From Barthelona sp. PCE (Eukaryota): DNA of 64,000 nucleotides. Below the pieces are notes generated by a model. That model was not told where the DNA came from, did no database searches, and saw only the letters and a program-made list of their open reading frames with translations. Within the stretch, counting starts at the first letter, position 1, and every line of letters starts with the position of its first letter. Position numbers and translations under genes: made by a program. The stretch lies in assembly GCA_040285745.1 (NCBI GenBank), contig JAUFOR010000005.1:620001-684000 (forward strand). Reading direction: 5' to 3'. Shown piece by piece: positions 5,246 through 64,000 of the stretch.

Positions 5246-5312
5246 GTAAATGGTGTATTTCTGCATTTTCCTTTTTTTTACTTCTTTTTCAGCAGACAAT
5301 TTTGTTACTTTG

Positions 5313-8411: not shown

Positions 8412-8477
8412 ATTTATGCATTATGTAAATAGTAGTTTTTTTTTTACAGTGATTTGGTTAAAAAGTTAGCTGTGTGT

Positions 8478-12326: not shown

Positions 12327-12431
12327 AGTCTGCTCTTATCAAAAAAAGAGTGAAAAGGGTTGGATATGGTCATACAAATTTTTTCTTGTGTTTTTCACAG
12401 TTTTACTCTCTTCATATTTTTTACCTTTAAA

Positions 12432-15203: not shown

Positions 15204-15205
15204 CA

Positions 15206-15218
15206 TTTATTCAATAAA
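15206..15218. terminator. Putative bidirectional polyadenylation signals in a 26-bp convergent spacer
   Basis: TTTATT-C-AATAAA (15206-15218) between the stops at 15203 and 15230. Confidence 0.5.
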
Positions 15219-15229
15219 AAGTTTGATTT

Positions 15230-27649: not shown

Positions 27650-28600
27650 ATGGACTACGGCAGCATCGGAGGGGCAGATGTGAAACCATGTGACACTAAC
27701 TCTCGCATTTTATTTTTCGTTAAGACAGTTTTTGACATTTCTGTAAGCATTGCGACGTATTACAGCATTTATTTGAGCTTGGTACAGGGAAAATCTTTTC
27801 GTAGTACGAATAACTTGTTCAGTTCAGTCTTATTGAGCATATTTCTCGCTCTTCCACTTGTTCTGGGTGCTTTCAAATGGTTAAGAACGGAAGTCGTGGT
27901 GGGGCACATGGGTCTGACGGCGTCAGCCATCCTCGATATTGCTCTGTTGGCGGTATTACTGACCTGTTGCGTGTTTGGCAGTAACAAAAGTGTCTTGCTT
28001 ACCACGCTGGTATTAGTCCTGCTCAGCAAATGCGTGATGCCATCAACCAGGTACTCTTGGTGGAGCATGTCCCTACATGAAGGCAGGGATCTCATTGCTA
28101 GACTCAAAAGCGAGAAGCCCATCTTAAAGCACGGTTTTTACCAGTCAGTATCCCGATTCAATACAGTTGAGGAGTTCACCATTGATTCTATCGTGGACCA
28201 CACAGAGGACTGCGATATTCCAACCAGTTCACCAATGTATTTACTGCAAGTTGGAACCAGTTTTAGTCCTGGTGATAAGTTCACAGAGGATCTTGAGGAG
28301 TATTTCCTCAGAAAGAGCGAGCGGGAGTATACCGGGGGAAAGGTGCAGATGAAGTGGGGTGTGCAGCAATCTCTTCCATCGCTTGAGAAAGTCAAGAAGT
28401 TTTTAATTGTGATTTCTCAGAAGAGTACCGGGTTTGTCGGTATTAAATGGTGCATCATGCTACTTCTGGCGCCATGTCAGCTGTGGTACACGTTCCGGAT
28501 CTCGTGTACCGCAGGTGTGCTAAAACTGAAAATGATTAAAAAGTACTACTGTCATGAAGACGGTCCTAAATCAGTTGAGCGCTATTACCATTACAACTAA
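27650..28600 (+). CDS. Multi-pass membrane protein, possibly divergent TMEM151 family
   Basis: Four N-terminal hydrophobic helices, a soluble beta-rich middle (LIARLKSEKP, EEFTIDSIVDHT, LLQVGTSFSPGD) and a C-terminal hydrophobic segment. The resemblance to TMEM151 is from memory only. Confidence 0.45.
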   Translation: MDYGSIGGADVKPCDTNSRILFFVKTVFDISVSIATYYSIYLSLVQGKSFRSTNNLFSSVLLSIFLALPLVLGAFKWLRTEVVVGHMGLTASAILDIALLAVLLTCCVFGSNKSVLLTTLVLVLLSKCVMPSTRYSWWSMSLHEGRDLIARLKSEKPILKHGFYQSVSRFNTVEEFTIDSIVDHTEDCDIPTSSPMYLLQVGTSFSPGDKFTEDLEEYFLRKSEREYTGGKVQMKWGVQQSLPSLEKVKKFLIVISQKSTGFVGIKWCIMLLLAPCQLWYTFRISCTAGVLKLKMIKKYYCHEDGPKSVERYYHYN

Positions 28601-35721: not shown

Positions 35722-38700
35722 TTAGTCACTCTTCATTGCTGCGACAGCGCTCGAGAACTGCTCAACGTTCTCTGGCATGAAGAGGCTATTGTGCAGACAG
35801 TCCATACGAACAACCTGCACTGTGTTTTCGTCAATATCGAAACCATTAGTGGGATGTTTGGCAGAGCGCACTGTAACGTAATCACTCTCAAGTACAATAT
35901 CACAGACGACCAGTAAAGTGGGGATATGGTACTGGATGGAGTCTGAGAAACCGGTGGAGCGTTCGTATAAGTGACACTTCATGTCGTTGAAATACATTTC
36001 GTTAGCCAAGTCGTGATACCATTTGTTTTCGATATCTTCAAAGTCCATGACTCCGTGGAGATGCGTGACGGACGCCTGCGAATCCTCCAGCGAAGGTACG
36101 TGGTCGAACTCGACAAGAGGGTGCACAGGATCGAAAAGAACGACAAACTCCAATGTTGAGGAGTTAACGTACTGTTTCGTGATTAGTTCGTGTACGGATA
36201 GGGCACCGTACGAGTAACCACCGATTGCGAAACGGCAGTTAGGGTTTGCTTGATATAGGGCGTTAAATACACCCGCCAGGAATTGCAGGTTGTCATCCAT
36301 CGTTTCAGGTTCGTTGGAGCCAAAGTTCGGGTTGCTAACAGCAATAACATTGAAAGGGGTACGCTCAAACAGCTGTAGATACTCAACAGCGGTACCGTTG
36401 CCCGAGTAGAACAAAACCATGTTGACACGGGTGTCTGAGATCAAAGAGTCGGAACTGGATGCATGTGAAGCAACCATGAACCCGGCCTGGTCATCGGATG
36501 TAAGCTTCAGATTGCTGGCTAGATATGACAGCACTGGTTTGTCCATGACTTCCTTGAATGAAAGAGTGATACCATGTTTTTTCAGCTCTGACACCAGTTT
36601 GATGATGAGCAGAGAGTGACCACCCAATGAGTAGAAGTCGCTGTCGTGGGATATAGCACTCAGGGGAATCGCAAGGAGTTCCGAGAAGCACTGGGCGACA
36701 ATGACTTCCTCAGTAGTGTGGATAACATTGCCTTCCAGATCGTTTTTGCTGACCTGGCGGGACAAAGACTCCGATTTCCTGTCTAATTTACCGTTGTGGG
36801 TGGTGGGAAGCTTTAGAACAGGCGTGAACGAACTCGGGATCATATACTTTGGAAGCTTTTGATCAAGGGTACGTTGAAGTGTAAGAATCTGTGTCGATGA
36901 AAGCTCATCAATCTCGATAAAGGCTGCGAGAACATCGTGCTCGTATATGACGATGGCGTTCGTTGAAAGACATTCTGTAATGATAGCCTCAATCTCGAGG
37001 AGCTCCACACGATATCCACGAATCTTGACCTGGTTGTCCAGACGTCCCACAAACAGAATGTTGCCGTCGGGTAGTCTCTCGACTGCATCACCAGTTCGGT
37101 AGAAGCGGTGTCCATTGATATTTATGAAGCGTTCTGCCGTTAGCTCAGGCTGACCTGCATAGCCAAGGGCAACACCAAGTCCGCCAATCAACAGCTCACC
37201 GGTGACGCCAACTGGCACAGGGCGCAAGTTGGGGTCAACAACTACACAGTGCATGTTGTTGAGAGGCTTACCAATCGGAAGCACATCAGTTGCAACGGAC
37301 ATGTCGTTGGTAAACGCGGTTGTGTCGACAGCTGCCTCGGTGACACCGTATGTGTTGTACAGTGTACCGTCAATAGCGCTGTCAAAAATCCTGAAGTCGC
37401 TCATTGACCAGCTGTCTGATCCACAAGCGATATTGCGAATTGAGAGCCTATCCTTGAGGCTCATCTCATCCACGAGACTGCGCAGGACGACGGGCACGAA
37501 TTCAGCGAATGTGAATTTGCTTGACATAATGATCTGAAGCAGACGTTGGGGGTGGAGCAATATGGAGCGGTCAACGAGATGAGCGTGCGTTCCAAAGAAG
37601 AGGAAGCGAATCATGTCACCAACGAATACATCAAAGCTGGGACTTGCCATTTGCAGTAGGCGCTCTTCGGTGCCAAAATCGAAGAGATCCTTCCAGGCAG
37701 CGGCAACATTAAGAACACTGCCGAAACCGATGCATACGCCCTTGGGCTTACCACTAGATCCGCTGGTGAAGACTGTATATGCTGGCTGACTTAATTGGGC
37801 ATCAGTCGCACTGATGTCGATTGCAGCATGTTCGTTGATGTCACCAATAGTAACAACAGGAACACTGAATTCTGTGCGAGCATCAGTAAGATCAACAACC
37901 ATTGTACACTGCCCGGTTGTAACCATGTGCTCAACACGGTCGCTGGGGAGTGACGCGTCAATGGGAACGAACGAGCGTGCACTAAGCCAACAAGCCAAAA
38001 CAACTGCGGGTGCATACACACTCTTGTGCATGAAAATACCAATCACGGTGTTTGTACTTTGGCTAAGTAGACTGAGAAGACGCTTGGTGAACAGCAAGAA
38101 GTCGCCCACAGTGATTGATGACATTGTGAGAACATCGTTTCTCATCTCAGAGACTGTAACGAGTGTTTCATTCTGAGAAAGTGAAACAAAGCGGTCAAGG
38201 ATTGCCTGCATTGCCTCTGAAACGGTTGGACCCGTCCAAATAGTATGCGGAATATCGATTTGACGCTTAATGAGATCACCACTTGTTGACTCAAGCAACA
38301 TGCGCTGAGCCACAATTGCAACCTCGCTCATGATATTGTTAAGCATGGCGCGCGACTGAGGGTCATCGTTGACACTGAAACGCAGCATAAACTGATTAGA
38401 CGTGCCGGCGCTGATTGCAAGAGGATACTCTGTGAGATCCATTGCAGCTAGCTGATCAATGTGGGTGTCGTCCTCGGAACTGTCCTCGGGCGTACCAGAG
38501 ATGATGCCGATACTATCAAACGCAATCATTGTTGTGAAAAGTTCACGGCGTCCGGCCAACAGCGATGACAACGAGAAGTTCGAGTGCTGTGCAGCGCCCA
38601 GAACCTCTGTGTTGAGGTTGATGAGCAGCTGGTCTATGGGAAGGTTCAACCACGAGTCGGGCATAAATATTGGCAGCGTGTTAAACAGAGGACCGACGAC

Positions 38701-41700
38701 GTTAACCAATGACTGGTTCTGTCTTCCACTCACAGTAAGGCCGAACACTGCTGGCTGGTCGGGAACCAGACGCTTGAGTGTTATCAGCCAAATTGCCATA
38801 ATAAGTGTGTTGGCAGTAACGTTGTGTTCATACGCCATCTTTCTCAGCTGATCGCTATTGTCCAGCGTGAGGATGGTGTCGTGCGACGATGTAGGGCGAG
38901 TCAGGTGCTTCAGGCGATGGTTGCCCAGCTCCTTAGGAAGGTGGGAGAGCCACCAGCCCAAGTTATCGGGTAGACCACGAGCAATGGTGCTGAAACGCTC
39001 ACTGACAGGTACGTCCTCGCCGTCTAGAATGGCCTCGAACATACTGACAATGAGTTCGACGGAAGACCCATCAACAATGGAGTGATGGTGGGTCCATACA
39101 ACGCACGTGGTGCTCTCAGTCTTGGCAAAAACTGTGAAGCGGGATGCAACCATCGTGTGATCGACGGTCCTGGAGAAGGAGTTACGGCACTGTGTGACAA
39201 TCTCCTCCACCTCATGACCATCGTTCGGAATAACGTAGATGACGTCCATTGGGGCGGAAGGCATGTTGATTAGTCCAATGATACCAGTATCCATGAACAA
39301 AAACTCTGTACGCAGTGCTGGGTTGGCGTCTATCAGCTTGGAAAGTGCCTTTTCGACGCAATCAACGTCATGGTTGATCTCGAAGACGCGACTCTCGAGG
39401 TAGTTCTGTGACTCGCGGTTGATAAACACGGGCAACAGAATACCTTGTTGGATGGCTGTGGGGGTGTATATGTCTTCAATGTGGGAAGTATCCTTGTGCT
39501 CGCGAACATATTCGAGCTCCTCCTGCTGAACACCGTAGTCGCGCTCAATGACAACATCGGTGGCCTGCGTGATGCGGCCAATGGTTGCGCTGAGTTCAGT
39601 CTCGAACTCAGCCATTTCATCAGCGAGGTCAGGTGAGTAGTCGATCACCAACTGATATGTGCCATTGCTGCGTGACATGTTGATGTTGATGAGGAAGGGG
39701 AAGTTGTTCTGCGGATGGAAGTCACTATCACCGTATCCGAGAACGTCGAAATCGGTGGTCTTTGTGTTATCCTCGCTCTGAGAGCCAATGTCACCAAGGT
39801 AGTTGACACAGAACTGCGGAAGCTTGCGCTTATGCAGCTTCTTACTCTGAATCAACGTACCGTAGGTGGATGGATTCTGTGACAACGAGCGGCGGAATGT
39901 GCGGATAAATTCGCTAATGTCTTCAGTCATGAACGCTGCAACTGGGAAAAAAGCTGTGAAGAAACCCACAGTGTCCAGTATGTGCGTGCATGTTTCACGA
40001 CCGTGCTGTTCGAGCGTGAGGCCGACATTACGTAAGCTAAACATACGTCCAAAGGTGTGTGCAATCACTGCGAACAGGATCTCGTGAGAGTTGTCAAGCG
40101 GTACTGCCAACGATGTTTTGAATGTAGCATTCATATATGAACCGAACGGCTTGGTTTGCAGCGGCAACATGTCGTAATCGATGCGCTGCCAAAGGTCAAT
40201 GTGTTGAGAAGCGTTCATATCCATAAGAGCAGCGTTTGCAGCAGCCATATCAGTCTGAACAACGGTTGAGGACTTGAGGTCGCCAAGAATACGGGACCAC
40301 GATACAAAATCAACAATGAAGTGATGGATCGCAAATAGGGCGGCATCCTCAAAGCGGAAAATGTGGAAGAGCGGGTCATGTAGTACATCCAGTTCTTCAC
40401 CGACCGCAATGAGTGCTGCTTCTGCCGCTTTAGAAGACTCCACGTGGTGGATCTTGAAGAGTGTTGATACATCGTCGGGTGTGATGCAAATTTTGTGAAG
40501 CTTCACGTCGAATCTACATCTGAAAGAAGTATGTGCGTCAACCATCCTCACCAGACGCGTGTTAAGCGCCTCATCTGTCAGGGTACACTGGACATACATG
40601 CTTTGGAAGAAGTGGCCGGGATACATAAAATTCTGATCAAAGATGAACTGAACTGCATGTGATACGGGCACATTGCTGCCATCATACGACAACAGTGATA
40701 CCTCTGCGGCCATGCTGAGCGCAACAACCTCCGCCAGGCCAATAACAGATGGGTGACCAAAGATATCCTTGAGAGTGAGTGTGAAGCCCAAATCTCGCAT
40801 CTTTGATATGAGTTGAATAGCGCTGATTGAGTCACCGCCCAACTTGAAGAAAGACACGTTGGGATCAAGCGTAGTGAGGTGTAACACGGAGCAGAACACA
40901 TCGTAAACGCTGCGCTGCTTGACAGTCAACCTACTCACGTCATAAACCTCCTCTTCCTGGTTCAGTTGTGTGTGCAACATATAGAACTTGAAGGAGCTAA
41001 TTTGCTTACGATTGGCCTTACCGCTGCTTGTGAGCGGAATTTCATCAAGGAAGACGTAGTCGGCAGGTCGCATATAACCTGGCAGGTTGTTACCTGCTTC
41101 AGCAGTCATTTTTGCGCACAGTTCGTGGTAATTACCTGCCTTCTGGAAGTAAGCAACGATGACAATGTCGCTTGGCTTCTTAACAGGGACTACGATAACG
41201 CTATCACCAATTACACCGGAAAGAACTTGCTCAATTTCACCGAGCTCGATACGGTTGCCGCGGATCTTGACCTGGTGGTCGATGCGGCCGAGGTACTCGA
41301 CGTTCCCGTCTGCGCGCCAGCGCACGAGGTCGCCCGTCTTGTACAGGCGGCCCGCGGCGAACGGGTTCGGCACGAAGCGCGCGCGCGTGAGGTCGGGAGC
41401 GTTGTAGTAGCCGCGAGCGAGCGCGATGCCACCGATGTGCAGCTCACCCGGAACGCCGATGGGGCACAGCTGCATCGCCTTGTTCAGCACGAGCAGCTGG
41501 TTGTTCGCAACTGGTATGCCGATCGGCGGGTTGCTGCGCATGCCAGGCGTGCACTCGTACCACGATGAGTCGATCGTTGTCTCGGTGGGGCCATACAGGT
41601 TGAGCAAGCGGCAGTCGTCGACCTTCTCGAAGAACTGGTCGCACATGACGAGCGGCAGCGCCTCACCGGACTGAACGACGATGCGGAGGCTGGGTAGCTT

Positions 41701-56700: not shown

Positions 56701-59700
56701 ACCGTAAATGTTCCACAATGAGACATGAGGGAACATACGCATGAAGCGACGGTCAGCAGTGATGGGCAGCGCCTCACCTTCGTTAAACACATACCTTAAA
56801 TGAGGGAATGTGTTACCGTCAGTGTAGTCGAGCCACACCGAAAGCAAAGAACCAACGAGACCGCAAATCGTGATACTATTATTTGCCAAGAACTTTGTGA
56901 TCTCAGTAACATCATTGTGCTTACCAGGTGGCATGAGCCACAACTGAGCACCGTGGACAGCAGTAGCAAAGACCTCCCAGACCGAAACATCGAAAGAGAA
57001 GGGGGACTTTTGCACGACACGATCAGATCCATCGTCCTTAAAGAACTGTGCCATCCACAGCAGACGGTTAACCGTTCCTCGGTGGATGATACAGATACCC
57101 TTCGGCTTTCCGGTTGAACCTGATGTGTACATTACGTATATCAAGCTGTTGGGACCTGTTAGATTAACGGGGTTCTCTGTTGGGTACTTTGCAAAATCAA
57201 CACTGTTATAATCGAGTAGCTGTCCATCAAACGTAAATGATGTGAAACGACTCAGAAGTGAAGTCTCTGAAATAATAACTGAGAGTCCGCTGTGCTCGAT
57301 ATAGTACTGGATACGGTCATCAGGATAAGTGGGATCAAGGGGTAGATACGCCGCTCCGGCCTTAATAATACCCCAAAGACAAATGATGAGCATTATAGAA
57401 CGATCGACAGCTAAGCCAATGATACTCTCCGGACCAGCACCTTGATCACGTAAGAAATGCGCAACCCTGTTTGCAGCGGCATTGAGCTCGCCGTATGTCA
57501 TACTTGTACCATCGTACGATACAACGGCAACACGGTCAGGATGCATGCTAACACGATCCTCAATGAGCTCGTGAACACATTTATGATCGGGTATGTACTT
57601 CCTACATCCGTTGAGACCGTGAAGGATGTGCTGTCTTTGCTGAGGGTGGATAATCTCAACATCAAGCACGGTTTGAGCTGTGTTGGAGAGCATATTGTCA
57701 AGTAAGAAGTGGAAGTTCTCTGACATACGTTCAATGGTACCCTTCTCAAAGAGTTCAGTCGAATACTCCCACTCAAAAGTGACAGTACGAGCGCTCCTAT
57801 CCTCATGGGCGATTAGAGAAAGATCAAACTTGGCGAGTGGTACTTCAGGCATAAAGTCTTCCACTGTACATCCATTAATATCAAACACCTCTTCATCACT
57901 GGAGACGAGATTGAACATTGTCTGGAACACAGGGTTAAGGTTAGCCTGACGGGCAACACTAAGATGATCCACTAGCTTCTCAAACGGAATATCTTGATGC
58001 TCATATGCGGAAATGCACTTCTTGTATACATACTTCACGAATGAATCAATGGATGCACTTTCGTCAAAGTCAAGAGCAATAACAATAGTGTTAACGAAGA
58101 AACCAACGAGGTTTTCCACGTCAGAACTATGTCTGTTAGCAATAGGTGTTCCGATATTGACATACTCTTGGTTTGTGTAACGGTGCAAAAGAATACCGAA
58201 AACTGAAAGAAGCAAGTGGTACACTGTACATCCAAGCGTTTTGGTCAACTCAATACATTTTTCATATACGGCTGTATCTACAGTTGTGTGGAACGTGTGT
58301 CCCGTATATGTGAGCTGAAGTGGACGTGGGTTGTCGAACGGAAGCTGTAAAGGAGTATCCTTGCCTCGCAGTTCTCCACGCCAAAAGGCAAGTTGACGGT
58401 CAAGCTCAGCACCTGTCAGGAATTCTCTTTGCCATACAGCGTAGTCAAAATACGTAACTGGCAACTGTGGAAGTGACGCCGTCTTGTGTGCAAGGGCAGC
58501 GTTGTACAATGATGATAGATCTCGAAGAAGAATGTCCATAGACCAACCATCTGAGCAGATGTGGTGCATACAGAGCGCAAGTACATGGCTCTTGCGACCA
58601 GTGTCTGTCAGTGGGATCAGAGCAACGCCAACCACAGGACCATTGACAATATCAAAGTCTTGTTGGAAATACTCTGAAACAATATCTCTTGCCTCGTCTG
58701 AAGTGCGTGCATCATATAAAGTGAGAGGGAATGCAGCTACACCACCCAGTACCTGAACGGGTTGACTGCCACGTGACTCTGTTCTGATACGCAGCACTTC
58801 GTGTCTCTCGTACAAAAGATCCAGCGCCTCACGCATAGCCTTGATATTGAGCTCGCCGTCAACACGGTATATAGATCCCATGTTGTAGAGAGCCGAAGTG
58901 TCAAGCAACTGACCCAGAATCCATGAACGAAGTTGTGCAAATGAAAGAGGCGCCTCAATTCGCTCCTTATGAGAGATGTTTCGAGTTGATTTGTGTTGCT
59001 TATTTGCAGCACCAACATATTCAGCCAGTGCTACGACGGAGGGTTTATCGAAGAATGAAGAAAGCGACACCTCAACAGAGAAGACCTTCCTAATACGTGC
59101 AACGACCTGTACGGCCAAGAGAGAGTGTCCTCCAAGCGAGAAGAATGACTCAACACACGAAAGCTTCTCCAATTTGAGTAGTTCGCAGAAAATATCATGA
59201 ATCTCTTCCTCTGTCTGGTTTGTAGGCTCAACAATGTCATTCTGAGACACGAATAAATTAGATGATGTTGGTTCGGGGAGACGCTTCCTGTCAATCTTAA
59301 TTGTTACTGTTTGTGGGAACTTCTCCATGACAGTAAGGTAAGTAGGAATCATGAACTTTGGAAGTGCCTTAATGCAGTGAGCGTATAAAGAAGGCAAGAA
59401 ATCCGAGTCTGGTTTCTTGAGTGTTACATAGAGAGCTAATCTCTTCTCGCCTGACTTGATAACAACTGTTGTGATTGCACCCGAAACATTGGGGTGTGTC
59501 ATAACAACGTTGTCAATTGCTGTGGGCTCGATACGGAAACCACGGATCTTGACCTGATGGTCGCGTCTGCCAACAAACTCAATAAAACCGTTCGGCAATC
59601 GACGGACAAAATCTCCTGAGTTATAGACACGGTCGGTGAATGTAGCGGTGGGTTTCCAATCTATGAAGGATTTCTCGGTGAGATCTGGTCTGTTGACATA

Positions 59701-62700
59701 ACCAACACCTGTATGAGCGCCACCAATCATCAGCACACCAACAACACCCTGTGCGACAGGTTCGTATGTTGATGGGTTGACAACATACAATGAGCAGTTA
59801 GGCATATGCTGACCGATGGGAACCGAACGATCTGTAACGGTATGCTTCGTAATATTGTACCAACTTGAATAAACTGTTGCCTCCGTAGGACCGTACACGT
59901 TCATCAGAACCCGTGGAGCGTTGTCTGATTCTAACACAGCACAAACAGTTGCCTTTGACATTGCCTCACCACCAGTGGAAAGCGTGTCAAATGCCTTGAG
60001 AGCTGCAGGGTGCATTTTGGCAACGGCGTTAAAAAGCGCTGTGGTCATAAAACCCCACTTAGGACGAACGCGAATCAAAATATTAGCGTATTTCTTGAGA
60101 TCAAGTACCATTACCTTCGGTACCAGGTGAACAGTACATCCGTTTGCGAGACCGACGTGGATCTCAATCATGTGAGCGTCAAACGCTAGAGTACTAGCGC
60201 ATACAATACTATCACCCTCACCCAGTGAAACCAGATCGTCCATCTCCATTAGTGCGAGAAGGTTACGGTGGCGGATGACACATCCCTTAGGGACTCCTGT
60301 TGTACCAGATGTGTAGATGATGTACATGATATCATTGTGTTGAGCAAGGTCAAGTTCAGTTGCAGGAGCGGGAGAATAATGCTCTGAATCAGAAACTAGT
60401 TTATCAAGAGTAATGATATCGTACTCGCCCGCAAGAGCCTCGCGGGTGTCATCACGCATCGTCTCTACAATAACAAGAGAGACACCTGCATCACCAGCAA
60501 TGAACTGGGCACGATCAACGGGTATGTCAACAGGAATGGGAACATAGACTGCGCCCAGTCGAATAATGGCATATATGACAGCAGGAGCCATCAAAACGCG
60601 GTCACTCGAGAGCAAAACATATGATCCCCGTGTGACACCGCACTCGTCCCTGAGGTACGTCGACATACGGTCAACAGTTGAAAACAGTTGTCTGTAACTG
60701 AGCGTCTCGTTCGTTTCACAATCAACTACAGCAACAGCGTCTGGCTCTGAGAACACCATTGATCTGGCATGCACGGTAGCATAATCCAAATACGAAGTTG
60801 ATGGTTCTCTGTTCTTCTTGTTGAACTGCATGATTTCTGTCTCAATAACTGCGGGTGTAGCGCTTGATAAGTTCTCGAACTTAATGTCAGCCAGATTCTT
60901 CTCAATGAATTGTCTGGTTATATGCTCGTACACTGATGATATTATCTCAATTGTATCTTTTGAGAACATATCAACGTCGTAATCGATGGAAAACTCAAAT
61001 GAGCCATCAGTTTCAAGAACAGTCACACTGAGATCAAACTTTGCAGCCTTCTGCTCAGTTTCCAGTTCGGAAACGGGGATTCCATCAAACTCTGGCAATT
61101 TCTGACGCATGTTCAACATGTTAAAGGTAATTTGGAAAATGGGATTGGCGTTTGCCAGTCTTGGCATCTGCAGCTTCTCAACGATTTGTTCAAAAGGAAC
61201 GTCTTGGTTATCAAACGCACTCAATAGAGTTTCCTTTACGGTTGCGATGAATGCGTCCATATGGACAACGTCCTTCGTAACTCTGACAGGAAGAGTGTTA
61301 ATGAAGAATCCAATCAAGTCTTCAATTTCGGTTATGCGACGACCAGCGACAGGACATCCAATCACAACTTCATCACCGTCAGAGAAGTGGAGCAGCGTTG
61401 CTGAAAAAGCTGAAAAGAGAGCCATATATGTAGTGACACCCTTGTTGTGACAAAGAGACTTGACACCTTCAACAATGTCTGAACCAAATTCAAACGAGTG
61501 GGAGGCACCTACAAATCGGGACTTATCAGGGCGAGGGTGATCACTGAATACGGTGTGCAATGCAGATGATCCCTCCAGGTGCTTGAGCCAGAACTGAAGT
61601 TGGCTTTCAACAACGGAGCGGGATAGCGTAACGCGTTGATTAACAGAAAAATCAGTGTACTGGAATACAGGCTCTCTTACCTTACCGCCCGCGTAACGAA
61701 CCGCCAGTTCATCAAAGAAAAGGCCAACTGACCAACCATCACTGATGATATGGTGCATATTGACAACGATAGCAGTTTTTCCATCGTCGCAGTGTGCCAC
61801 CTTACAGTAGAACATGGGTCTATGGAATGAAAAGTTGTGTTCTGATGCTTCTTGAGCCCACTTTTGGGCGATAATCTTCGATTCAAGAGTTGACGTCTCA
61901 TAGACAAAACAATCTGAATCTACATCAACGATTTTCTGCGCTACAACACCCATGTCATCGACAAATACAGTTCTCAGTGAGTGCTGGTCGTGAGCAATGT
62001 CGTAAATTGCGTTTCTGATGCGGTCGATGTCCAGCATATCATCAACAATAAACTCGACGTGCATATTATACAGAGAAGATGCATCGATTAACTTACAGAC
62101 GAGCCACAGACGCTGCTGTGCGAATGAGAGCTCGTAAGAAGCCTTGTTGTGCTTCTCGAACGATGAAACTGAAGCACGATTCATTACAGAAGTCAGCGAA
62201 CTGATGGACTGACTGAGAGTCTCCGGTGTCGGGTTGACAAAAATGTGACTCACCTTGATCTTTTGATTGAGCTCCTGTGAAAGGCGGGCAATTACCTGTG
62301 TGGCCACAAGCGAGTGACCACCCAGATCGAAGAAACTATCGCGTATACCGACAGTGTCAACACCTAGTACCTCCTCAAAGACGCGACAGATAAGCTTCTC
62401 GATCTCTGTCGTTGGTTCAACATAATTCGACACAGAAACAGTCTGAGCAACAGAAGGCTTTGGCAAGGTCTTGCGGTTAACTTTACCTGATGTTGTCTTG
62501 TTAAAGTGTGATACAACAATATAGCGAGCAGGAACCATGGTGAGTGGCAGCTTCGTAAGCATAAACTGACGTATGTTCTGAACGTACTCGGTGTTATGCA
62601 GAACAACCAACTCATCTGATTCGGTCAAGTGAGAATACTCATGCTCGCGGGGAACAACATACGCACACAGATAGTTATCTCCCGACTTATCCTTAACAAC

Positions 62701-64000
62701 AGTGATTAAACCAGTTGATACTTCAGGATGAAGAAGTAAAGCACTGGCTATCTCACCAAGCTCCATACGAAGACCATGAATCTTGACCATGAAGTCAGTT
62801 CGGCCCTTATAGTGGATGAGACCCTCGTTGTCATATCGACCAAGATCGCCTGACATATACACATACTCATTTCGTTCTTCAGTGAGTGCAAATGTTCCGA
62901 AACTTTTCTTAGTAAGATCAGGACGCTTCCAGTATCCGCTTGCAACGGCGGCACCACCGGTGTATATCTCACCGACAGCACCCTTTGGTGCGAGGTAGCC
63001 GTTCTGTACAATCCAGCAAGTGTAGTTATCAAAGCAATATCCGCATGGAACATAGGTCTCTCCCGGTTTTGTTTCGTAATATGTGGTCTCAAGACAGCAC
63101 TCCGTTGCACCGTATGTATTTACCAGCTTCGCGTTGGGGAACTTCTCGTAGAACAGGTCACGCACGTATGTAGTCAACGGTTCTCCACTGAGGAACACGT
63201 AACGCAGACCCTGGTACTTCTCCGCATCAATGGCATCAAGGAAGGCCTTAAGCATACTGGGCACAAAGTAACAAAGAGTGACATTGTGCTGTTCAAACTC
63301 TTCAAATATCTCAACCGGTTCACGGTGAGCATTGGGTTGTGTCATATGGAGAACAGCGCCACACAAGAGTGGCACGATATACTCCCATACACTCGGGTCA
63401 AACGTCAACGTTGTCTTTAGAGCAATGACGTCCGCAGCGGAAGCTTTTGTGTACTCCAACTGCCAAATCATACGGTTCATAACGGCATCGTTTGTTGTTG
63501 GGATACCTTTTGGCGTACCAGTCGAACCTGAAGTGAACACAATGTAACAGCGATCGTCGAACGAAACTGTCCAATCGAAGCTCACCTTCTGATCTAAATA
63601 ATCGCTTGTGGACACTAAATCCACGTCCAACACGTGGCAACCGGACTCGCCAATGATGTCGGGTAAACGATCCCTCAAGATATCGTCGTCCACAATCAGC
63701 ACCGACATGTCAACATCTTTAACTAAGAAATTGATACGGTCGGTTGGGAAAGACGGCTCCATGGGAACATAGAGAGCACCTAGCTTGAAACATGCCAGAA
63801 TAGCAAACATCATCTCTGGTCTACGCAGAATGCAAATACCCACTGCATCACCCTTTGTCACATTGTGCTCTAAAAGGTATGCACACATTGCGTCTGTCTC
63901 GGCAAACAGCTCGCGGTACGACCATGAACTTTCTCCGAACGTCAGTGCGCAATCATCGAGATGCTGGTTACCATAAGAGAAAATGTGCTCGAATATTGTT
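35722..64000 (-). CDS. Giant multimodular non-ribosomal peptide synthetase, 5'-truncated by the window (at least 8 modules, 3 epimerases, terminal thioesterase)
   Basis: The frame stays open from 63888 to 64000 (TIFEHIFSYGNQHLDDCALTFGESSWSYRELFAETDA), so the start is outside the window. Eight A3 motifs TSG(S/T)(T/S)GxPKG near 63520, 60300, 57115, 53915, 49530, 45100, 42000 and 37755. Eight carrier-protein Ser codons at 62311, 59122, 55912, 52753, 48337, 43957, 40828 and 36613. Seven C-domain (H)HxxxD motifs, three E domains (HHxxxDxVSW, ExHGR, VG(W/F)FT), TE GYSYG (Ser codon 36211). Confidence 0.98.
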   Translation of the reverse strand, partial: TIFEHIFSYGNQHLDDCALTFGESSWSYRELFAETDAMCAYLLEHNVTKGDAVGICILRRPEMMFAILACFKLGALYVPMEPSFPTDRINFLVKDVDMSVLIVDDDILRDRLPDIIGESGCHVLDVDLVSTSDYLDQKVSFDWTVSFDDRCYIVFTSGSTGTPKGIPTTNDAVMNRMIWQLEYTKASAADVIALKTTLTFDPSVWEYIVPLLCGAVLHMTQPNAHREPVEIFEEFEQHNVTLCYFVPSMLKAFLDAIDAEKYQGLRYVFLSGEPLTTYVRDLFYEKFPNAKLVNTYGATECCLETTYYETKPGETYVPCGYCFDNYTCWIVQNGYLAPKGAVGEIYTGGAAVASGYWKRPDLTKKSFGTFALTEERNEYVYMSGDLGRYDNEGLIHYKGRTDFMVKIHGLRMELGEIASALLLHPEVSTGLITVVKDKSGDNYLCAYVVPREHEYSHLTESDELVVLHNTEYVQNIRQFMLTKLPLTMVPARYIVVSHFNKTTSGKVNRKTLPKPSVAQTVSVSNYVEPTTEIEKLICRVFEEVLGVDTVGIRDSFFDLGGHSLVATQVIARLSQELNQKIKVSHIFVNPTPETLSQSISSLTSVMNRASVSSFEKHNKASYELSFAQQRLWLVCKLIDASSLYNMHVEFIVDDMLDIDRIRNAIYDIAHDQHSLRTVFVDDMGVVAQKIVDVDSDCFVYETSTLESKIIAQKWAQEASEHNFSFHRPMFYCKVAHCDDGKTAIVVNMHHIISDGWSVGLFFDELAVRYAGGKVREPVFQYTDFSVNQRVTLSRSVVESQLQFWLKHLEGSSALHTVFSDHPRPDKSRFVGASHSFEFGSDIVEGVKSLCHNKGVTTYMALFSAFSATLLHFSDGDEVVIGCPVAGRRITEIEDLIGFFINTLPVRVTKDVVHMDAFIATVKETLLSAFDNQDVPFEQIVEKLQMPRLANANPIFQITFNMLNMRQKLPEFDGIPVSELETEQKAAKFDLSVTVLETDGSFEFSIDYDVDMFSKDTIEIISSVYEHITRQFIEKNLADIKFENLSSATPAVIETEIMQFNKKNREPSTSYLDYATVHARSMVFSEPDAVAVVDCETNETLSYRQLFSTVDRMSTYLRDECGVTRGSYVLLSSDRVLMAPAVIYAIIRLGAVYVPIPVDIPVDRAQFIAGDAGVSLVIVETMRDDTREALAGEYDIITLDKLVSDSEHYSPAPATELDLAQHNDIMYIIYTSGTTGVPKGCVIRHRNLLALMEMDDLVSLGEGDSIVCASTLAFDAHMIEIHVGLANGCTVHLVPKVMVLDLKKYANILIRVRPKWGFMTTALFNAVAKMHPAALKAFDTLSTGGEAMSKATVCAVLESDNAPRVLMNVYGPTEATVYSSWYNITKHTVTDRSVPIGQHMPNCSLYVVNPSTYEPVAQGVVGVLMIGGAHTGVGYVNRPDLTEKSFIDWKPTATFTDRVYNSGDFVRRLPNGFIEFVGRRDHQVKIRGFRIEPTAIDNVVMTHPNVSGAITTVVIKSGEKRLALYVTLKKPDSDFLPSLYAHCIKALPKFMIPTYLTVMEKFPQTVTIKIDRKRLPEPTSSNLFVSQNDIVEPTNQTEEEIHDIFCELLKLEKLSCVESFFSLGGHSLLAVQVVARIRKVFSVEVSLSSFFDKPSVVALAEYVGAANKQHKSTRNISHKERIEAPLSFAQLRSWILGQLLDTSALYNMGSIYRVDGELNIKAMREALDLLYERHEVLRIRTESRGSQPVQVLGGVAAFPLTLYDARTSDEARDIVSEYFQQDFDIVNGPVVGVALIPLTDTGRKSHVLALCMHHICSDGWSMDILLRDLSSLYNAALAHKTASLPQLPVTYFDYAVWQREFLTGAELDRQLAFWRGELRGKDTPLQLPFDNPRPLQLTYTGHTFHTTVDTAVYEKCIELTKTLGCTVYHLLLSVFGILLHRYTNQEYVNIGTPIANRHSSDVENLVGFFVNTIVIALDFDESASIDSFVKYVYKKCISAYEHQDIPFEKLVDHLSVARQANLNPVFQTMFNLVSSDEEVFDINGCTVEDFMPEVPLAKFDLSLIAHEDRSARTVTFEWEYSTELFEKGTIERMSENFHFLLDNMLSNTAQTVLDVEIIHPQQRQHILHGLNGCRKYIPDHKCVHELIEDRVSMHPDRVAVVSYDGTSMTYGELNAAANRVAHFLRDQGAGPESIIGLAVDRSIMLIICLWGIIKAGAAYLPLDPTYPDDRIQYYIEHSGLSVIISETSLLSRFTSFTFDGQLLDYNSVDFAKYPTENPVNLTGPNSLIYVMYTSGSTGKPKGICIIHRGTVNRLLWMAQFFKDDGSDRVVQKSPFSFDVSVWEVFATAVHGAQLWLMPPGKHNDVTEITKFLANNSITICGLVGSLLSVWLDYTDGNTFPHLRYVFNEGEALPITADRRFMRMFPHVSLWNIYGPTETSIDTAVYECTLDLDYAAPPIGQAMHNCTVYALDKLNRIVPLGVAGELHIGGIGVGRGYYLRPDLTDDKFVHDPFAEELGLPERFGSRMYRTGDLGRFRFDSQLEFIGRLDFQVKIRGHRIELGEIENVLSGLDFTESCVVVARKDDGDLKLVGYIVPSDGIIDGDVAIARKKLARDVCSEELPKYCVPSAIVLLDRIPRTPNDKVDRKALPAPSMQVSSMEIVAPKSALEAQMVDTWKELLSLPSVSTVDNFFDVGGHSLLATQLASRIKSIFNIQIPLHQLFGSLTIVSLCKMISERLAQEQTVSFKPLKKTVNLDMSVDYVEVPLSFAQQRLYFIDQLEGSSAMYNVPILFNINGSINIEALRCALNGLVTRHRILVTTYHEDINGAIVQRIPTGEVFAPFNYLMTTDDIIEKANDEVMTVFDLETGPVFRVTLIQRMGKDEHMLLLNAHHICTDGWSMSLMTKELQTMYNAAVRSETPELPVIEAQYCDFALWQKDYLKSVMDKQVAFWRERLSGVQDLSLVLPYDRSRPETLMYDGKFYNFEIPNVVAGLESVTKTQGCTMFMLVLTVYQLLLYRYSCSDSVVVGVSIANRHFEAIESLIGLFVNSLPIRADFDSSMTVLDVLHATRLNLLEAYDNQDVPFEKLLDELDVPRRLNQNPIFQTMFDFMIIDDAELDFVSLDVDSSDFSFDKAKFDLALVGKADSDTDSLWIQFEYCTELFDESTIVRLCDSFEAIIRSVIDSVATPIIQLPLGRSETELLETIEGEHDSVKHDKLFHELVLDTCRTHPDVTAFVYKEETYTYAEFEIAISKVACAIASTDPGTFVGVAVERGVAAPIGAFGVLAGGRAYCPIDIKLPQNRVDHMLKLGGIRVVVCSRSQVGRFKECKCLVVEDILASSPVELPTLSHVTHDSPAYVIFTSGSTGLPKGVSISHNAVVNAALAWKTAYELEPHMRHLQMASFSFDVCTGDFCRALTTGGTMYILDRDVLLMPDQLAAYIIENSINVAEFVPAVMRVLYEYCHETDTRLPSFKLLACGSDFWSEREFVTFNWLIPNGVMINSYGLTEATIDTTFFKGVIENPTSSGVPIGVPFANQSVLILNQNMQRCPVGVQGEIFIGGSGVALEYVNQPDLTAKRFVTVDGHRVYRTGDGGRWRSDGNCVLSGRMDNQVKIRGYRVELGEIEAVLMNEPEVDTAVVLLNNDSLIAYLTVTPDMELYVRDLNNSVTKKLPHYMIPTGYVCVLEFPLTHNGKVDRKALVASENVPVLVNSDFVAPKTDVQRALHGVWARVLQVGETAFGITDNFFRIGGDSILCIQIVSGCRRQGITISVRDIFKYPTIEQLADHARLEVKTEKKIFTGEIVMSNIMKQYLSRTHDNINHYNLGVVLNVDGYSTEKIKAAFEKVILSQPLLRSVFVDSKCFALPMSPSTVDHIDLNAGCDISTEVTRLGEQMHQKIAIDKCNVCATHLTTPGASLLLIVAHHLVIDGVSWRIVADSLKYHLEDPAAPIDYDSAFNEYMAVVNEEIGERTAQYTDCSYADARREEFELDESISKRIVDVANETDRINVEEILLGALTLALVDMKHSTAMNIESHGRFDRLTSAADVSNTVGWFTHQFTLDPQESSVISVDQPLDALRAIKDMRRNAGDGIYVKDQPAVVSFNYLGQFNSSVSNTGLCDMCDYSLGAYVDDRNFMEFAIDFNASLSDGILSASLASSDSYSNQFVSDLITKFKLYVSLLVTSIDIVHFYTPSDFDGLVTSEFIASNMHLVSKLESVSALSTMQMGMYFASLTAQDSDLSDYYVEQPLFKLDVNTPESLVHQAFDLLVERHPILRSYLARTTDFSVNMITIKPEEANVVWIHEEMRAYSDDDVQNIVEADAIRGFDLFNAPPVRVYWLASPECVVLLFSHHHILLDAWGTAVLFDDFLHILNTLKSEQVVAPIKTASASYLEYVKYIKALDSSAAKTFFKDMLADYSMPSALRFGHVFGFGEGYGYKKIEMSREVGIALEAMARSYQVTIATLIQVIFASVLSVYQSTETLSLGTTVSGRAIDLNVDDTVGLFINTLPILFDLRRTRTLEEVCTSVQALMVEINAHSHVSLSEIQKWVNMPGKQLFDTLIVVENINSIEGSEDIEVPYNMRSFEVEEGTGKTDYPLTIAVYPENNSVQFGFRKELLSRAFIDQFVEHCESVVNRVVENPSLTIAEMLETPESQHRRYVEQFNANVCEYPANGVDAVFGKIAADHKNLIAVIDSATKERVTYEELHARSNAMAHSLRAHGLKCNDVVAFAVDRSLSLIVLMLAIVKAGGVYLPIIDSYPMDRVEFMLEDTQAVFAIATSNKFGLFPETCTVHDLSVIQSDAENHSDRCIHCLSKMTADDPVCIFYTSGSTGKPKGVLLPHRGIVRLTQNTNWTTIETHDVFAQCSTVAFDAATLEIWTTLLNGATLVIIPKQVVLDPSLFDETLSRYNVTHVFLTTAIFNRHCIDESVTHFSKLKYIMFGGEKADSSAIRSCMLNFAPQHVVNLYGPSETTTLATFHEITEVPNVYDVIPIGRPVMNSTCYIMRQGTTELCPIGVPGELVTGGDGVALRYINAPELTANKFIPDTLKPLRNNTLYRTGDIALMRPDGIIEFVGRVDDQVKIRGFRIELGEIERALVAHGSVSNAFVTVRKTKLSQQRILAYLVPVITIYEEEAESVLSDIRDFISNLLPNYMLPSALCFVTEFPLTSNGKVDIKALPDMSSLETSVTPNFRPPVTQMEMRMADVWSAVLQKPSIGLFDNFFTLGGDSILAIQLVAGLKREGFNVKVNDVFSHPTIDSLLRICETLPTSDTVAISQARIVGNVQLLPAQRWFFAREFLNTNHFNQAFVLTVPHDCTYEDYKKCLITVFNAHDAFRALFSNEIVPRQRFMNELKIDFELADAVSPKDLQDFFNEKGTELQSSLNITSGPIIRTCFCGSHAILAIHHLIIDLVSWRILLDDLNDVFAHRHEVEHELPLKTHSVADYVDALTAFVESVGHKFVHYYESIPPFRLPSKHPDLLTVGTEAEVVSIQLSSEKTQQLLDVDVKLETLLLTSLYMALRKYCDSNSVIIGLESHGREEFLGIDLSRTVGWFTSIYPVHFKVGDISDLRIICAIIGAQKRASPMNGLPYLPLSFFSNDIEFESPSILFNYMGVMGNSGAKSETSSFGFSDYTAGLDVSLDNQMLADLLCNAVVMNGRLSVDFAFSEVKLDVNVMQRVLDDMQECLFSLCDVFAVSEPHKTPDLDLTILSTNQQYNLLSKINESVEAVLPLIPIQQRMLFHSNISDSRDYVIQSVYEISHVIDHEVFRKAVAHIMSLSEVLRCRFIDINGVGHMVVTPADAVTVPVHYVDDVFASKPSAMDRVASSLSFDICFSDEHLLFTFHHIVLDGHSLSLLMSCLLEAYEAIAAGETPSSDVVSYRTLAKHVYSYVHAINEKAAADFWKKQIANAQSSILEQWLTPQELTSIVPSHDSVYFTVDSTLTERLKTTCSHIGVTMNSLVLSVWSIVLSSILRQNDITVGIVSSGRNAFNDAERVLSIMINTVPFIVSVSSGTLETLAETVHKLMGQISEYSMYDVDTAAQSSSSELYNSLYVFENFASFDADADSSKLSFAPVDVHEVSEYPLSCIVQPRADDMVIELSYKNTFYTKSQIDAMGTMINAVLTHFAKNAAMHIFDIDLFSLSHTLAPEPSFNEEPELDIASSVIKYAAEHPQKPMLLFPNSTVSYMDVAIIALEVASQISNSVSFDFKHIAVVSERGLAQIVGIIVAGLLQKPYLPLHPKIGAERIHYMVEDSNAPVIITDGSFTDMYEHTFIPSIEMLSYSNAVLDVGSLPAFDDRHLYTIYTSGTSGKPKGVQVSSSCMLNLVHNKCIAVEEDSIVSLSVNPSFDPAAMEVFSTMFHKGVFAVFTDKHLVESTALRALVQRTGLKYWFSVTAVIAHLASENAACFHGIKRIMVGGEALKQSAVRDVFSKTYDGVLVNAYGPTENTVVSTARVYSRDDVDADITIGTPFTGVDYDITDHNQRFIPKVLPGELLLHGHQIAIGYLNREALTASQFPVINDCKCYRSGDLVCMVDSGEIKFMGRIDDQVKIRGYRIELDEISVVLSKGLNVDVEVLVHDLGKDTAALVAFIQSVNGDITPSKVNMVLKASMLPEYMHPQHNVFVKSMPLTLNGKIDRKKLMQQFTLKTDAVVSPRTLAEQLVVKGVASVLRRPEEEISVNANFFQLGGQSLLLARLKAVLSEHATLSLSDLFSAKSLSDIALLLNSSDSVTVFPVRVAKRDVYPITRGQQRMLFVCDLVGDTKQYHTYFTRRFTPCIDLDQLLVAFEKTINHFEPLRSVFTRDNKGMRVLSTAKYSVYKATSLDDLYAFSCHKSFVLDQSLVRLGYFVNDDGTISFVMTIFHGVVDGVSIEIIEKCLEFFYLNPKKSSIDLVSSSVTFKDYAVFQREVLEDTTSPSLDKWVELLKESEPVDMSTLPRPVELDYHSSTVQVVIGQDIDGGLNVLPRLRTLAKQHQISMFQLLLSLFGAFIQRCSSVEKLIVGVPSAGRDFVQIQDTVGYFVETIPVAFVHDAESDINAYIDQAGIALALARSAAVPIEAIIETVVEDRELNRNPLFQVFFAHEFNEQTSLITNEWDDLIVDDLSDSFMPDATKFDLSVTAVESEKEIVFVAEYMTSLFEPQSIQEIMNAFVLFIHVVGNNPTTCIDRVPMVEYDVLEPMTFVSAPEHDLGRDGITVSHLMLDVIRSQPEKIALTDHIGQSLTYIELFNRAMGIAKAVDIQKGEVIGVCFERSLDLMASLWAIVLSGAAYLPLDPSYPVDRLSYFVQHSKTMKVLCNTESANIASNFEAEIVDVSAINPIVIDPEQYITSASVNDIMYIIYTSGSTGTPKGVAIEHRSAVNRLLWMRDLTYTADDRFIQKTPYSFDVSVWELFVPFVLGAELHLLKPGAQNNPWEIADFVNERRVTIMHFVASMLGAFLDVLSVKLPSLRIVVQSGEALPLVMCDQFFEKVDDCRLLNLYGPTETTIDSSWYECTPGMRSNPPIGIPVANNQLLVLNKAMQLCPIGVPGELHIGGIALARGYYNAPDLTRARFVPNPFAAGRLYKTGDLVRWRADGNVEYLGRIDHQVKIRGNRIELGEIEQVLSGVIGDSVIVVPVKKPSDIVIVAYFQKAGNYHELCAKMTAEAGNNLPGYMRPADYVFLDEIPLTSSGKANRKQISSFKFYMLHTQLNQEEEVYDVSRLTVKQRSVYDVFCSVLHLTTLDPNVSFFKLGGDSISAIQLISKMRDLGFTLTLKDIFGHPSVIGLAEVVALSMAAEVSLLSYDGSNVPVSHAVQFIFDQNFMYPGHFFQSMYVQCTLTDEALNTRLVRMVDAHTSFRCRFDVKLHKICITPDDVSTLFKIHHVESSKAAEAALIAVGEELDVLHDPLFHIFRFEDAALFAIHHFIVDFVSWSRILGDLKSSTVVQTDMAAANAALMDMNASQHIDLWQRIDYDMLPLQTKPFGSYMNATFKTSLAVPLDNSHEILFAVIAHTFGRMFSLRNVGLTLEQHGRETCTHILDTVGFFTAFFPVAAFMTEDISEFIRTFRRSLSQNPSTYGTLIQSKKLHKRKLPQFCVNYLGDIGSQSEDNTKTTDFDVLGYGDSDFHPQNNFPFLININMSRSNGTYQLVIDYSPDLADEMAEFETELSATIGRITQATDVVIERDYGVQQEELEYVREHKDTSHIEDIYTPTAIQQGILLPVFINRESQNYLESRVFEINHDVDCVEKALSKLIDANPALRTEFLFMDTGIIGLINMPSAPMDVIYVIPNDGHEVEEIVTQCRNSFSRTVDHTMVASRFTVFAKTESTTCVVWTHHHSIVDGSSVELIVSMFEAILDGEDVPVSERFSTIARGLPDNLGWWLSHLPKELGNHRLKHLTRPTSSHDTILTLDNSDQLRKMAYEHNVTANTLIMAIWLITLKRLVPDQPAVFGLTVSGRQNQSLVNVVGPLFNTLPIFMPDSWLNLPIDQLLINLNTEVLGAAQHSNFSLSSLLAGRRELFTTMIAFDSIGIISGTPEDSSEDDTHIDQLAAMDLTEYPLAISAGTSNQFMLRFSVNDDPQSRAMLNNIMSEVAIVAQRMLLESTSGDLIKRQIDIPHTIWTGPTVSEAMQAILDRFVSLSQNETLVTVSEMRNDVLTMSSITVGDFLLFTKRLLSLLSQSTNTVIGIFMHKSVYAPAVVLACWLSARSFVPIDASLPSDRVEHMVTTGQCTMVVDLTDARTEFSVPVVTIGDINEHAAIDISATDAQLSQPAYTVFTSGSSGKPKGVCIGFGSVLNVAAAWKDLFDFGTEERLLQMASPSFDVFVGDMIRFLFFGTHAHLVDRSILLHPQRLLQIIMSSKFTFAEFVPVVLRSLVDEMSLKDRLSIRNIACGSDSWSMSDFRIFDSAIDGTLYNTYGVTEAAVDTTAFTNDMSVATDVLPIGKPLNNMHCVVVDPNLRPVPVGVTGELLIGGLGVALGYAGQPELTAERFININGHRFYRTGDAVERLPDGNILFVGRLDNQVKIRGYRVELLEIEAIITECLSTNAIVIYEHDVLAAFIEIDELSSTQILTLQRTLDQKLPKYMIPSSFTPVLKLPTTHNGKLDRKSESLSRQVSKNDLEGNVIHTTEEVIVAQCFSELLAIPLSAISHDSDFYSLGGHSLLIIKLVSELKKHGITLSFKEVMDKPVLSYLASNLKLTSDDQAGFMVASHASSSDSLISDTRVNMVLFYSGNGTAVEYLQLFERTPFNVIAVSNPNFGSNEPETMDDNLQFLAGVFNALYQANPNCRFAIGGYSYGALSVHELITKQYVNSSTLEFVVLFDPVHPLVEFDHVPSLEDSQASVTHLHGVMDFEDIENKWYHDLANEMYFNDMKCHLYERSTGFSDSIQYHIPTLLVVCDIVLESDYVTVRSAKHPTNGFDIDENTVQVVRMDCLHNSLFMPENVEQFSSAVAAMKSD

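Follow-up and report, generated by a model that had tools for sequence, protein, structure and literature searches.

A 64,000-nucleotide stretch of the genome of Barthelona sp. PCE (Eukaryota; assembly GCA_040285745.1, contig JAUFOR010000005.1, forward-strand positions 620,001 to 684,000; hereafter the window, numbered from its first letter) carries on its minus strand a gene for a nonribosomal peptide synthetase (NRPS). The gene is one uninterrupted open reading frame (ORF) of more than 28 kb (35722..63999), stop-free across 9,425 codons. It ends with a TAA codon at 35722-35724 and its 5' end is open at the window edge, giving a protein of at least 9,425 amino acids. The earliest ATG, at 63888, lies within the first adenylation domain; therefore the true start is beyond the window, and further modules or a starter condensation domain may be present upstream of its edge. 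Pfam found only NRPS families along the protein (AMP-binding PF00501, AMP-binding_C, PP-binding PF00550 and Condensation PF00668), and the NCBIfam amino-acid adenylation family TIGR01733 was matched in all three pieces of it. A model of this protein was found neither among proteins of 5,183-16,494 or 1,086-3,100 amino acids nor among the 150 representatives listed.

A motif scan combined with alignment of the adenylation domains gave the visible domain order A1-T1-C2-A2-T2-C3-A3-T3-C4-A4-T4-E4-C5-A5-T5-E5-C6-A6-T6-C7-A7-T7-E7-C8-A8-T8-TE, where A, T, C, E and TE are adenylation, carrier, condensation, epimerisation and thioesterase-like domains. All eight A domains contain the core motif A3, the Tyr-x-(Ser/Thr)-Gly-Asp motif and Lys517. 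The YGPTE-type core motif A5 is likewise present in eight of eight in the alignment, A1 having the variant YGATE that a strict pattern misses. QVKIRG is found in seven of them, with MVKIHG in A1. Every A domain is followed by a carrier with the phosphopantetheine-attachment serine in GGxS, located by motif scan: GGHSL in T1 (62200..62397), T2 (59005..59208), T3 (55795..55998) and T8 (36496..36699), GGQSL in T6 (43840..44043), and GGDSI in T4 (52636..52839), T5 (48220..48423) and T7 (40711..40914). The His-x3-Asp centre is kept in all seven C and all three E domains; C2-C6 and C8 have the full His-His-x3-Asp motif and C7 (FHGVVDG) retains the second His and the Asp. A single GYSYG occurs in the protein, at the C-terminus. 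The eight A domains are 26-43% identical among themselves (38% between A4 and A8). The gene is thus an intact, single-polypeptide, bacterial-type modular (type I) NRPS with eight visible modules.

We read the specificity codes at ten positions in GrsA numbering (235, 236, 239, 278, 299, 301, 322, 330, 331 and 517), first from a MAFFT alignment of the window's eight A domains and then, independently, from a profile alignment made with hmmalign of 1,433 A domains, comprising these eight and 1,425 bacterial domains cut from 263 bacterial NRPS matches. Both alignments gave DPWYFSTLEK for A1 (62470..63999), DAIFSGVVYK for A2 (59251..60762), DVWGFEIIDK for A3 (56041..57576), DVGEAGSIDK for A4 (52882..54375), DALFMGLTLK for A5 (48466..49992), DPMFMGAVVK for A6 (44086..45564), DVWHVSLIDK for A7 (40957..42459) and DVGEAGTVDK for A8 (36742..38217). 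The first-pass annotation had read the codes by hand and assumed Lys as the last residue of each. Its eight strings were reproduced letter for letter, the proper alignment by hmmalign shifted no code position, and the final Lys is Lys517, present in eight of eight domains. The spacing from Asp235 to position 278 is +43 in every one of the eight, the same as in GrsA. Between 235 and 322, however, they exceed GrsA by 6-9 residues, and positions 299-331 were therefore anchored on local motifs. The same columns of the bacterial domains yielded DFWNIGMVHK (75 times), DVWHFSLVDK (63), DAFWLGGTFK (28), DAWFLGNVVK (26), DILQLGLIWK (16) and DVGEIGSIDK (9); canonical bacterial codes are therefore recovered in bulk and the register is right. 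In a structure search 1AMU (the GrsA structure) ranked tenth, the top alignments being with linear gramicidin synthetase, whose score of 477 bits is the sum of two domains. An exact-string literature search of main texts with six of the eight codes returned no match; the A7 code occurs in the accessible part of the PMC12283262 supplement.

The table of this supplement, which in full lists 508 codes of 2,051 bacterial A domains that have been characterised, served in its accessible part as the curated reference for the substrates; the comparison may lack some rows for Leu, Ala and Tyr/Phe. Kinship outside the pocket was assessed in two ways. In the first, the ten code columns were removed and the ten nearest of the 1,425 bacterial domains were collected for each A domain. 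In the second, a maximum-likelihood tree with SH-aLRT support was built, again excluding the code columns, from 109 rows (101 code-labelled bacterial domains and the eight of the window).

The clearest case is A7. Its code is identical to the curated Ser(8) code of 35 domains, with His278 and Ser301 both present, all of its ten nearest bacterial domains are Ser-type (45-48% identity), and it is nested in a Ser-coded clade that holds A3 as well, with A1 alongside (support 95). The earlier prediction of Ser for this module is thereby upheld. The exact A7 code was seen in 4 of the 1,425 bacterial domains.

The A4 code differs at one position each from two curated ornithine codes, Orn(24) DVGEIGSIDK (GrsB, TycC, BreC, LatC and PpsA) and Orn(26), and the A8 code agrees at eight of ten positions with Orn(25) DVGEIGSVDK. 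The ornithine signature named in a passage of PMC3992020 is likewise DVGEIGSIDK. Within this code family the accessible curated table assigns Glu278 with Gly301 to Orn, Asp278 to Lys and Ser301 to 2,4-diaminobutyrate (Dab), and both A4 and A8 carry Glu278 and Gly301. With the code columns removed, seven of the ten domains nearest to A4 are DVGE-type (42-45% identity) and seven of the ten nearest to A8 are DVGE- or DVGD-type (37-39%). In the tree A4 and A8 fall together within a clade of 19 DVGE/DVGD-coded bacterial domains with a support of 100, and A8 placed alone joins the diamino acid clade with a support of 99. The Orn-like call made for both modules in the first-pass annotation agrees with these results. 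The exact A4 code was found in 3 of the 1,425 bacterial domains. Two of the three belong to the proteins P0094 and P0115, which also carry DVGDAGSIDK and DVGDVGSVDK domains adjoining them in the tree; each could be an uncharacterised Orn/Lys pair.

A5 agrees at eight of ten positions with DALFMGATFK (Leu/Ile/Val), DALFMGCTYK (Ile) and DALWMGGTLK (Val), and A2 at seven of ten with DAIYLGVVLK (Leu/Ile/Val) and DGFFLGVVYK (Ile). All ten nearest neighbours of A5 (42-45% identity) and eight of the ten of A2 (37-39%) have aliphatic codes. The two domains lie in the Val/Ile clade with a support of 95, which A2 also reaches when placed alone (support 95). The hydrophobic pocket of A6 is a weaker case. 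Its best curated match is 7/10, to Leu(34), the code types of its nearest domains are incoherent (35-36% identity), and in the 109-row tree it stands on a very long branch, weakly beside Ala-coded domains.

A1 and A3 appear to be Ser-type scaffolds with re-tooled pockets. Ten of the ten domains nearest to A1 (39-40% identity) and nine of the ten nearest to A3 (45-47%) are Ser-type. Placed alone, A3 falls in a set of Ser- and Gln-coded domains (support 97) and A1 in a looser Ser, Gln and Ala set (support 96). The A1 code fails as a Ser code at Pro236 and Tyr278, although the scaffold is Ser-type, and among the curated codes it comes closest, at 6/10, to one for Ala and one for Pro. The A3 code matches Ser(1) at seven of ten positions, with the Ser-defining residues lost (His278 to Gly, Ser301 to Glu). 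Glu at position 301 occurs in none of the 1,425 bacterial domains and in none of the curated codes in the accessible tables. As a speculation, a pocket made acidic in this way could suit a substrate that is basic or polar.

These comparisons allow us to predict, with fair confidence, Ser at position 7, Val/Ile-type residues at positions 2 and 5, and at positions 4 and 8 a diamino acid that is most likely Orn. The substrate reading of the first-pass annotation thus stands for five of the eight modules, including the aliphatic calls for A2 and A5. Its Leu-like call for A6 is weak, coming from a 6-7/10 code match of a domain that no tree places, and A1 and A3 had rightly been left without a call. 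In the trees the A domains also pair in module order, 2-3-4 with 5-7-8: A2/A5 (support from 92 to open), A3/A7 (99) and A4/A8 (96). Such pairing could reflect an aliphatic-Ser-Orn block that was duplicated long ago. The pairs are no proof of it because of long-branch attraction among the window's own domains, and the C domains pair differently, which weighs against the idea.

The stereochemistry of the product was approached through the E and C domains. Bacterial reference domains were defined by position: where two condensation-type domains lie between a carrier and the next A domain, the first was taken as E and the second as a D-donor type (DCL), and a single one as an L-donor type (LCL). 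From a pool of 119 E, 119 DCL and 857 LCL domains, 25 of each were sampled, one per protein. E4 (51238..52605; HHLVIDG, ESHGR), E5 (46822..48189; HHLIIDL, ESHGRE) and E7 (39343..40680; HHFIVDF, EQHGRE), of which E7 diverges most, contain the catalytic HH.x3.D and E(S/Q)HGR motifs and fall with 25 of 25 E references with a support of 100. C5 (49993..51195), C6 (45565..46779) and C8 (38218..39315), which directly follow them, fall with 25 of 25 DCL references (support 96); one of the 25 LCL references is also in this clade, and the join of C6 and C8 was flagged as long branches meeting. C2 (60763..62163), C3 (57577..58974) and C4 (54376..55764) fall with the LCL references, that is, with C domains directly after a carrier (support 90). 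C7 (42460..43809) lies in the C clade on a long branch with no subtype resolved. The branches of all these E and C domains are long (1.1-1.9 vs. a median of 0.52). GGDSI, a mark of carriers serving E domains, is present only in the three carriers ahead of E domains. The tree bears out the earlier assignment of E domains after modules 4, 5 and 7, and a D-donor-type C domain stands behind each. Because the position of the E domains, the tree and the matching downstream C types agree, predicted D-residues at positions 4, 5 and 7 are supported.

The last 256 residues of the protein (35725..36492) carry the GYSYG motif and gave a Pfam match to the thioesterase family PF00975 with an E-value of 0.0017. 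The region matched no NCBIfam family, and its alignment with bacterial NRPS C-termini is weak. When it was compared by hhalign with a profile of 57 bacterial C-terminal TE regions, the probability was 93.2% and the E-value 2.9e-7 over 105 columns; GYSYG was placed on the nucleophile elbow and the candidate catalytic Asp in LFDP was also aligned. A candidate His is present in CLHNS. A single-sequence AlphaFold2 model of the region had a mean pLDDT of 39. The region is best read as a divergent thioesterase, which would act by hydrolysis or cyclisation.

From the codes and domain subtypes we infer the substrates and the release chemistry as follows. Each of the eight visible modules would adenylate one amino acid, load it on its carrier and condense it with the growing chain. 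The E domains after modules 4, 5 and 7 would invert the residues, the next C domain would accept the D-donor, and the divergent C-terminal thioesterase would free the product by hydrolysis or cyclisation. The predicted core is X1-(Ile/Val)-X3-D-Orn-D-(Val/Ile/Leu)-(hydrophobic X6)-D-Ser-Orn, with at least two positive charges. The first-pass annotation had opened its product formula with leading dots, which is right since the gene runs off the window. We consider it likely that this locus is a eukaryote-resident, intact bacterial-type NRPS whose eight modules build this peptide core with Orn, Ser and D-residues.

Several observations weigh against this assignment. All bacterial homologues are distant, so that the bacterial code rules are extrapolated here. 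Homologues of module 4 were 27-35% identical among the listed matches in proteins of 5,183-16,494 amino acids, those of A1-T1 30-35% among the listed matches in 1.8 billion representatives, and those in a further search of proteins of 1,086-3,100 amino acids 29-37% among the matches listed. Every reference label in the A-domain trees is itself a code-based prediction, and the kinship is with such codes only. A tree without A4, A5 and A7 put A8 with A6 and A1 with A3, and in both cases the join was flagged as one of long branches. A5 placed alone is nearest to Val/Ile domains in no well-supported set, and A6 is unplaced in any tree. Three of the eight residues (A1, A3 and A6) are without a substrate call, and therefore the net charge and amphipathicity of the peptide are not fixed. 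E4, E5 and E7 scored 34.8, 36.5 and 18.0 bits on NCBIfam TIGR01720, for which the cut-off is 74.2, and the TE region scored 19.1 bits on PF00975, below the cut-off of 26.4. Only the N-terminal half of the TE region was aligned by hhalign, the half expected to hold the His being outside the alignment. Nothing in the 35 kb of 3' flank was recognised as a transporter, a phosphopantetheinyl transferase or an MbtH-like gene, and a six-frame scan with an MbtH-like motif gave no match. Two further points concern the diamino acid pockets. Both A4 and A8 have Ala299 where the curated Orn codes have Ile or Val, and their clade also holds two Lys-like (DVGD...) and two Dab-like (DVGE.S...) coded domains; therefore the clade defines a diamino acid and not Orn alone.

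These last points support a reading in which A4, A8 or both load Lys or Dab and not Orn, giving a peptide that is still cationic with side chains of other lengths. Ala299 would enlarge the pocket, the A4 code agrees at eight of ten positions with Lys(26) DVGDVGSIDK and with Dab(8) DVGEISSIDK in the curated table, and bacterial domains whose code is exactly that of A4 adjoin DVGD-coded domains of the same proteins. However, both pockets have the Glu278 and Gly301 of the curated Orn pattern, where Lys codes have Asp278 and Dab codes Ser301, and A4 is closer to the two Orn codes (9/10) than to either of these. We regard loading of Lys or Dab as unlikely, and keep Orn as the preferred substrate of both modules.

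As to the role of the product, a membrane-active antibacterial or defensive peptide is the most plausible candidate, and we put it forward tentatively. The first-pass annotation had suggested such a peptide too, on the premise of a bacterivorous host that could use it to kill prey or defend itself. The suggestion is by analogy with gramicidin S, tyrocidine, brevicidine and laterocidine, which contain Orn and D-residues and are among the products listed in the accessible part of the PMC12283262 supplement. A wider scenario, which we find doubtful, is that a deep-branching eukaryote has long kept an NRPS for a gramicidin- or tyrocidine-like antibacterial, with A1 and A3 re-tooled in place and Glu301 of A3 selecting a new, possibly basic, building block.

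The product might instead bind metal as a siderophore-type peptide, with Orn and Ser as its basis and its tailoring enzymes encoded at other loci. Hydroxamate siderophores commonly contain both residues, pyoverdine-type synthetases in PMC12283262 frequently show the exact A7 code, eukaryotic tailoring genes need not cluster, and the 5' flank is outside the window. Against this, the curated codes for N-hydroxy-, formyl- and acetyl-hydroxy-Orn are different ones (DGE..GG.TK, DVWNIGLIHK, DMEN...), and the codes that A4 and A8 match are those for plain Orn, as used for gramicidin S, tyrocidine, bacitracin, fengycin, brevicidine and laterocidine. None of the nine large ORFs 3' of the gene was recognised as a hydroxylase, acyltransferase or formyltransferase, and four hydrophobic-type pockets are, in our judgement, unusual for a siderophore. 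The first-pass annotation had seen no ornithine hydroxylase and had called a siderophore role unsupported; the nine neighbouring ORFs and the plain-Orn-type codes agree with it, and we consider this role improbable.

Decay of the gene to a relic that no longer makes a peptide is more improbable still. The long branches of its domains, the family scores of E and TE under their cut-offs and the variant core motifs of A1 would be expected of a relic, but a 9,425-codon open frame could not persist without selection, catalytic motifs are retained in every domain, the A7 pocket is letter-perfect, and the pocket shared by A4 and A8 is conserved though the two domains are only 38% identical.

The setting of the gene is eukaryotic. 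Among the nine other large ORFs of the window are those of a USP7-type ubiquitin hydrolase, an SSRP1/POB3 histone chaperone (20050-21684, minus strand) and two protein kinases, and five of the nine are without a Pfam family (5250-8411, 12360-15203, 15230-19756, 27650-28600 and 29289-35687). One of these five, orf15230, resembles none but eukaryotic clusters in the Atlas, at the level of a lead. The contig with the SSRP1 gene has 766,953 bases. The SSRP1/POB3 homologue retrieved only itself when 5.8 billion proteins were searched by a word-based method, and the host seems to be a poorly sampled, divergent eukaryote. The synonymous codon usage of the NRPS correlates at 0.92 with USP7, SSRP1 and orf15230, and its G+C content at third codon positions (GC3) is 0.51 vs. 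0.49-0.55 for these three. Along the NRPS gene GC3 climbs from 0.44-0.48 in codons 1-5,000 to 0.56-0.62 in codons 7,001-9,425. The NRPS ORF ends 35 bases from a convergent neighbour. Over a single A domain, identity to the 1,425 bacterial domains, code columns removed, is at most 48%, and the organism-named matches in both length-restricted homologue searches were all bacterial among the matches listed. The NRPS looks like an old acquisition that evolved in place, rather than contamination. That it is bacterial sequence attached to a eukaryotic contig, whether from a contaminant, from a symbiont or by a very recent insertion, is hardly credible: its domain types are bacterial-like, E and DCL pairs included, as are the organism-named matches, and its GC content is 0.48 against 0.34 in the adjacent ORF, but its codon usage matches that of conserved eukaryotic neighbours, it ends next to a convergent gene of the same contig, bacterial proteins are at most 37% identical over a module among the matches listed, and it shares TAA or TAG stops with its nine neighbours.

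All ten large ORFs stop at TAA (seven) or TAG (three) and never at TGA, none is cut by an in-frame TGA, and TGA seems to be avoided in this stretch. Between 710 and 35687 long ORFs of 947-2,132 amino acids are tightly packed on both strands, with several gaps of 5-70 bases as taken from the ORF list, whose starts may be over-extended. The ORF convergent with the NRPS (29289-35687, plus strand; 2,132 amino acids) has no family match, a GC content of 0.34 and a GC3 of 0.33, and its codon usage differs from that of its neighbours (r = 0.70 with the neighbours and 0.48 with the NRPS).

NRPSs as a kind of enzyme are already known, and the interest of this one is in its eukaryotic setting, its great divergence and its two apparently re-tooled A pockets. 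If A1 and A3 have indeed been re-tooled, they would be natural experiments in the change of A-domain specificity. Because three to five of the eight residues can be predicted with reasonable confidence, the predicted product has a concrete tag for mass spectrometry, namely D-Orn, D-Val/Ile, D-Ser and Orn. If the peptide is antibacterial, a eukaryotic microbe would be turning bacterial-style chemistry on bacteria.

To our knowledge, multimodular NRPSs with a known product are rare among eukaryotes outside the fungi, and a non-exhaustive search of the protist NRPS literature turned up no comparable case. Fungal multimodular NRPSs are likewise very large single polypeptides with few or no introns in a eukaryote. 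The E, C and A domains of the window NRPS nest in bacterial reference sets, which were composed without fungal sequences, and bacterial code rules fit A4, A7 and A8.

Among bacterial systems, the hydroxamate siderophore synthetases have the building blocks Orn and Ser in common with the prediction made here, but their Orn-derivative pockets have other codes in the curated table, and no hydroxylase was recognised near the window NRPS. Pyoverdine-type and other Ser-activating A domains have the same ten-residue code as A7 in that table, but they are at most 48% identical to A7 outside the pocket and work in another product context. BreC/LatC and the bogorol-type synthetases place several Orn and D-residues in a short cationic antibacterial peptide and use the same Orn code family, as far as the accessible part of PMC12283262 goes. 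Their products are lipopeptides made via a starter C domain, whereas the N-terminus of the window NRPS lies outside the window, and we found no close sequence kinship between these synthetases and the window NRPS. GrsB and TycC, which make gramicidin S and tyrocidine in Brevibacillus, share with A4 the DVGE.GS.DK Orn pocket (9/10; Table S9 of PMC12283262, as accessible), and, like the window NRPS, they set a D-donor-type C domain behind an E domain and have a terminal TE. The product predicted here would likewise mix Orn with aliphatic and D-residues. Unlike GrsB and TycC, however, the window NRPS has A domains that, pocket excluded, share no more than about 45% identity with any bacterial domain with an Orn code, Ala in place of Ile at position 299, another order of residues, and all of its modules on one polypeptide of more than 9,400 amino acids encoded in a eukaryotic genome.

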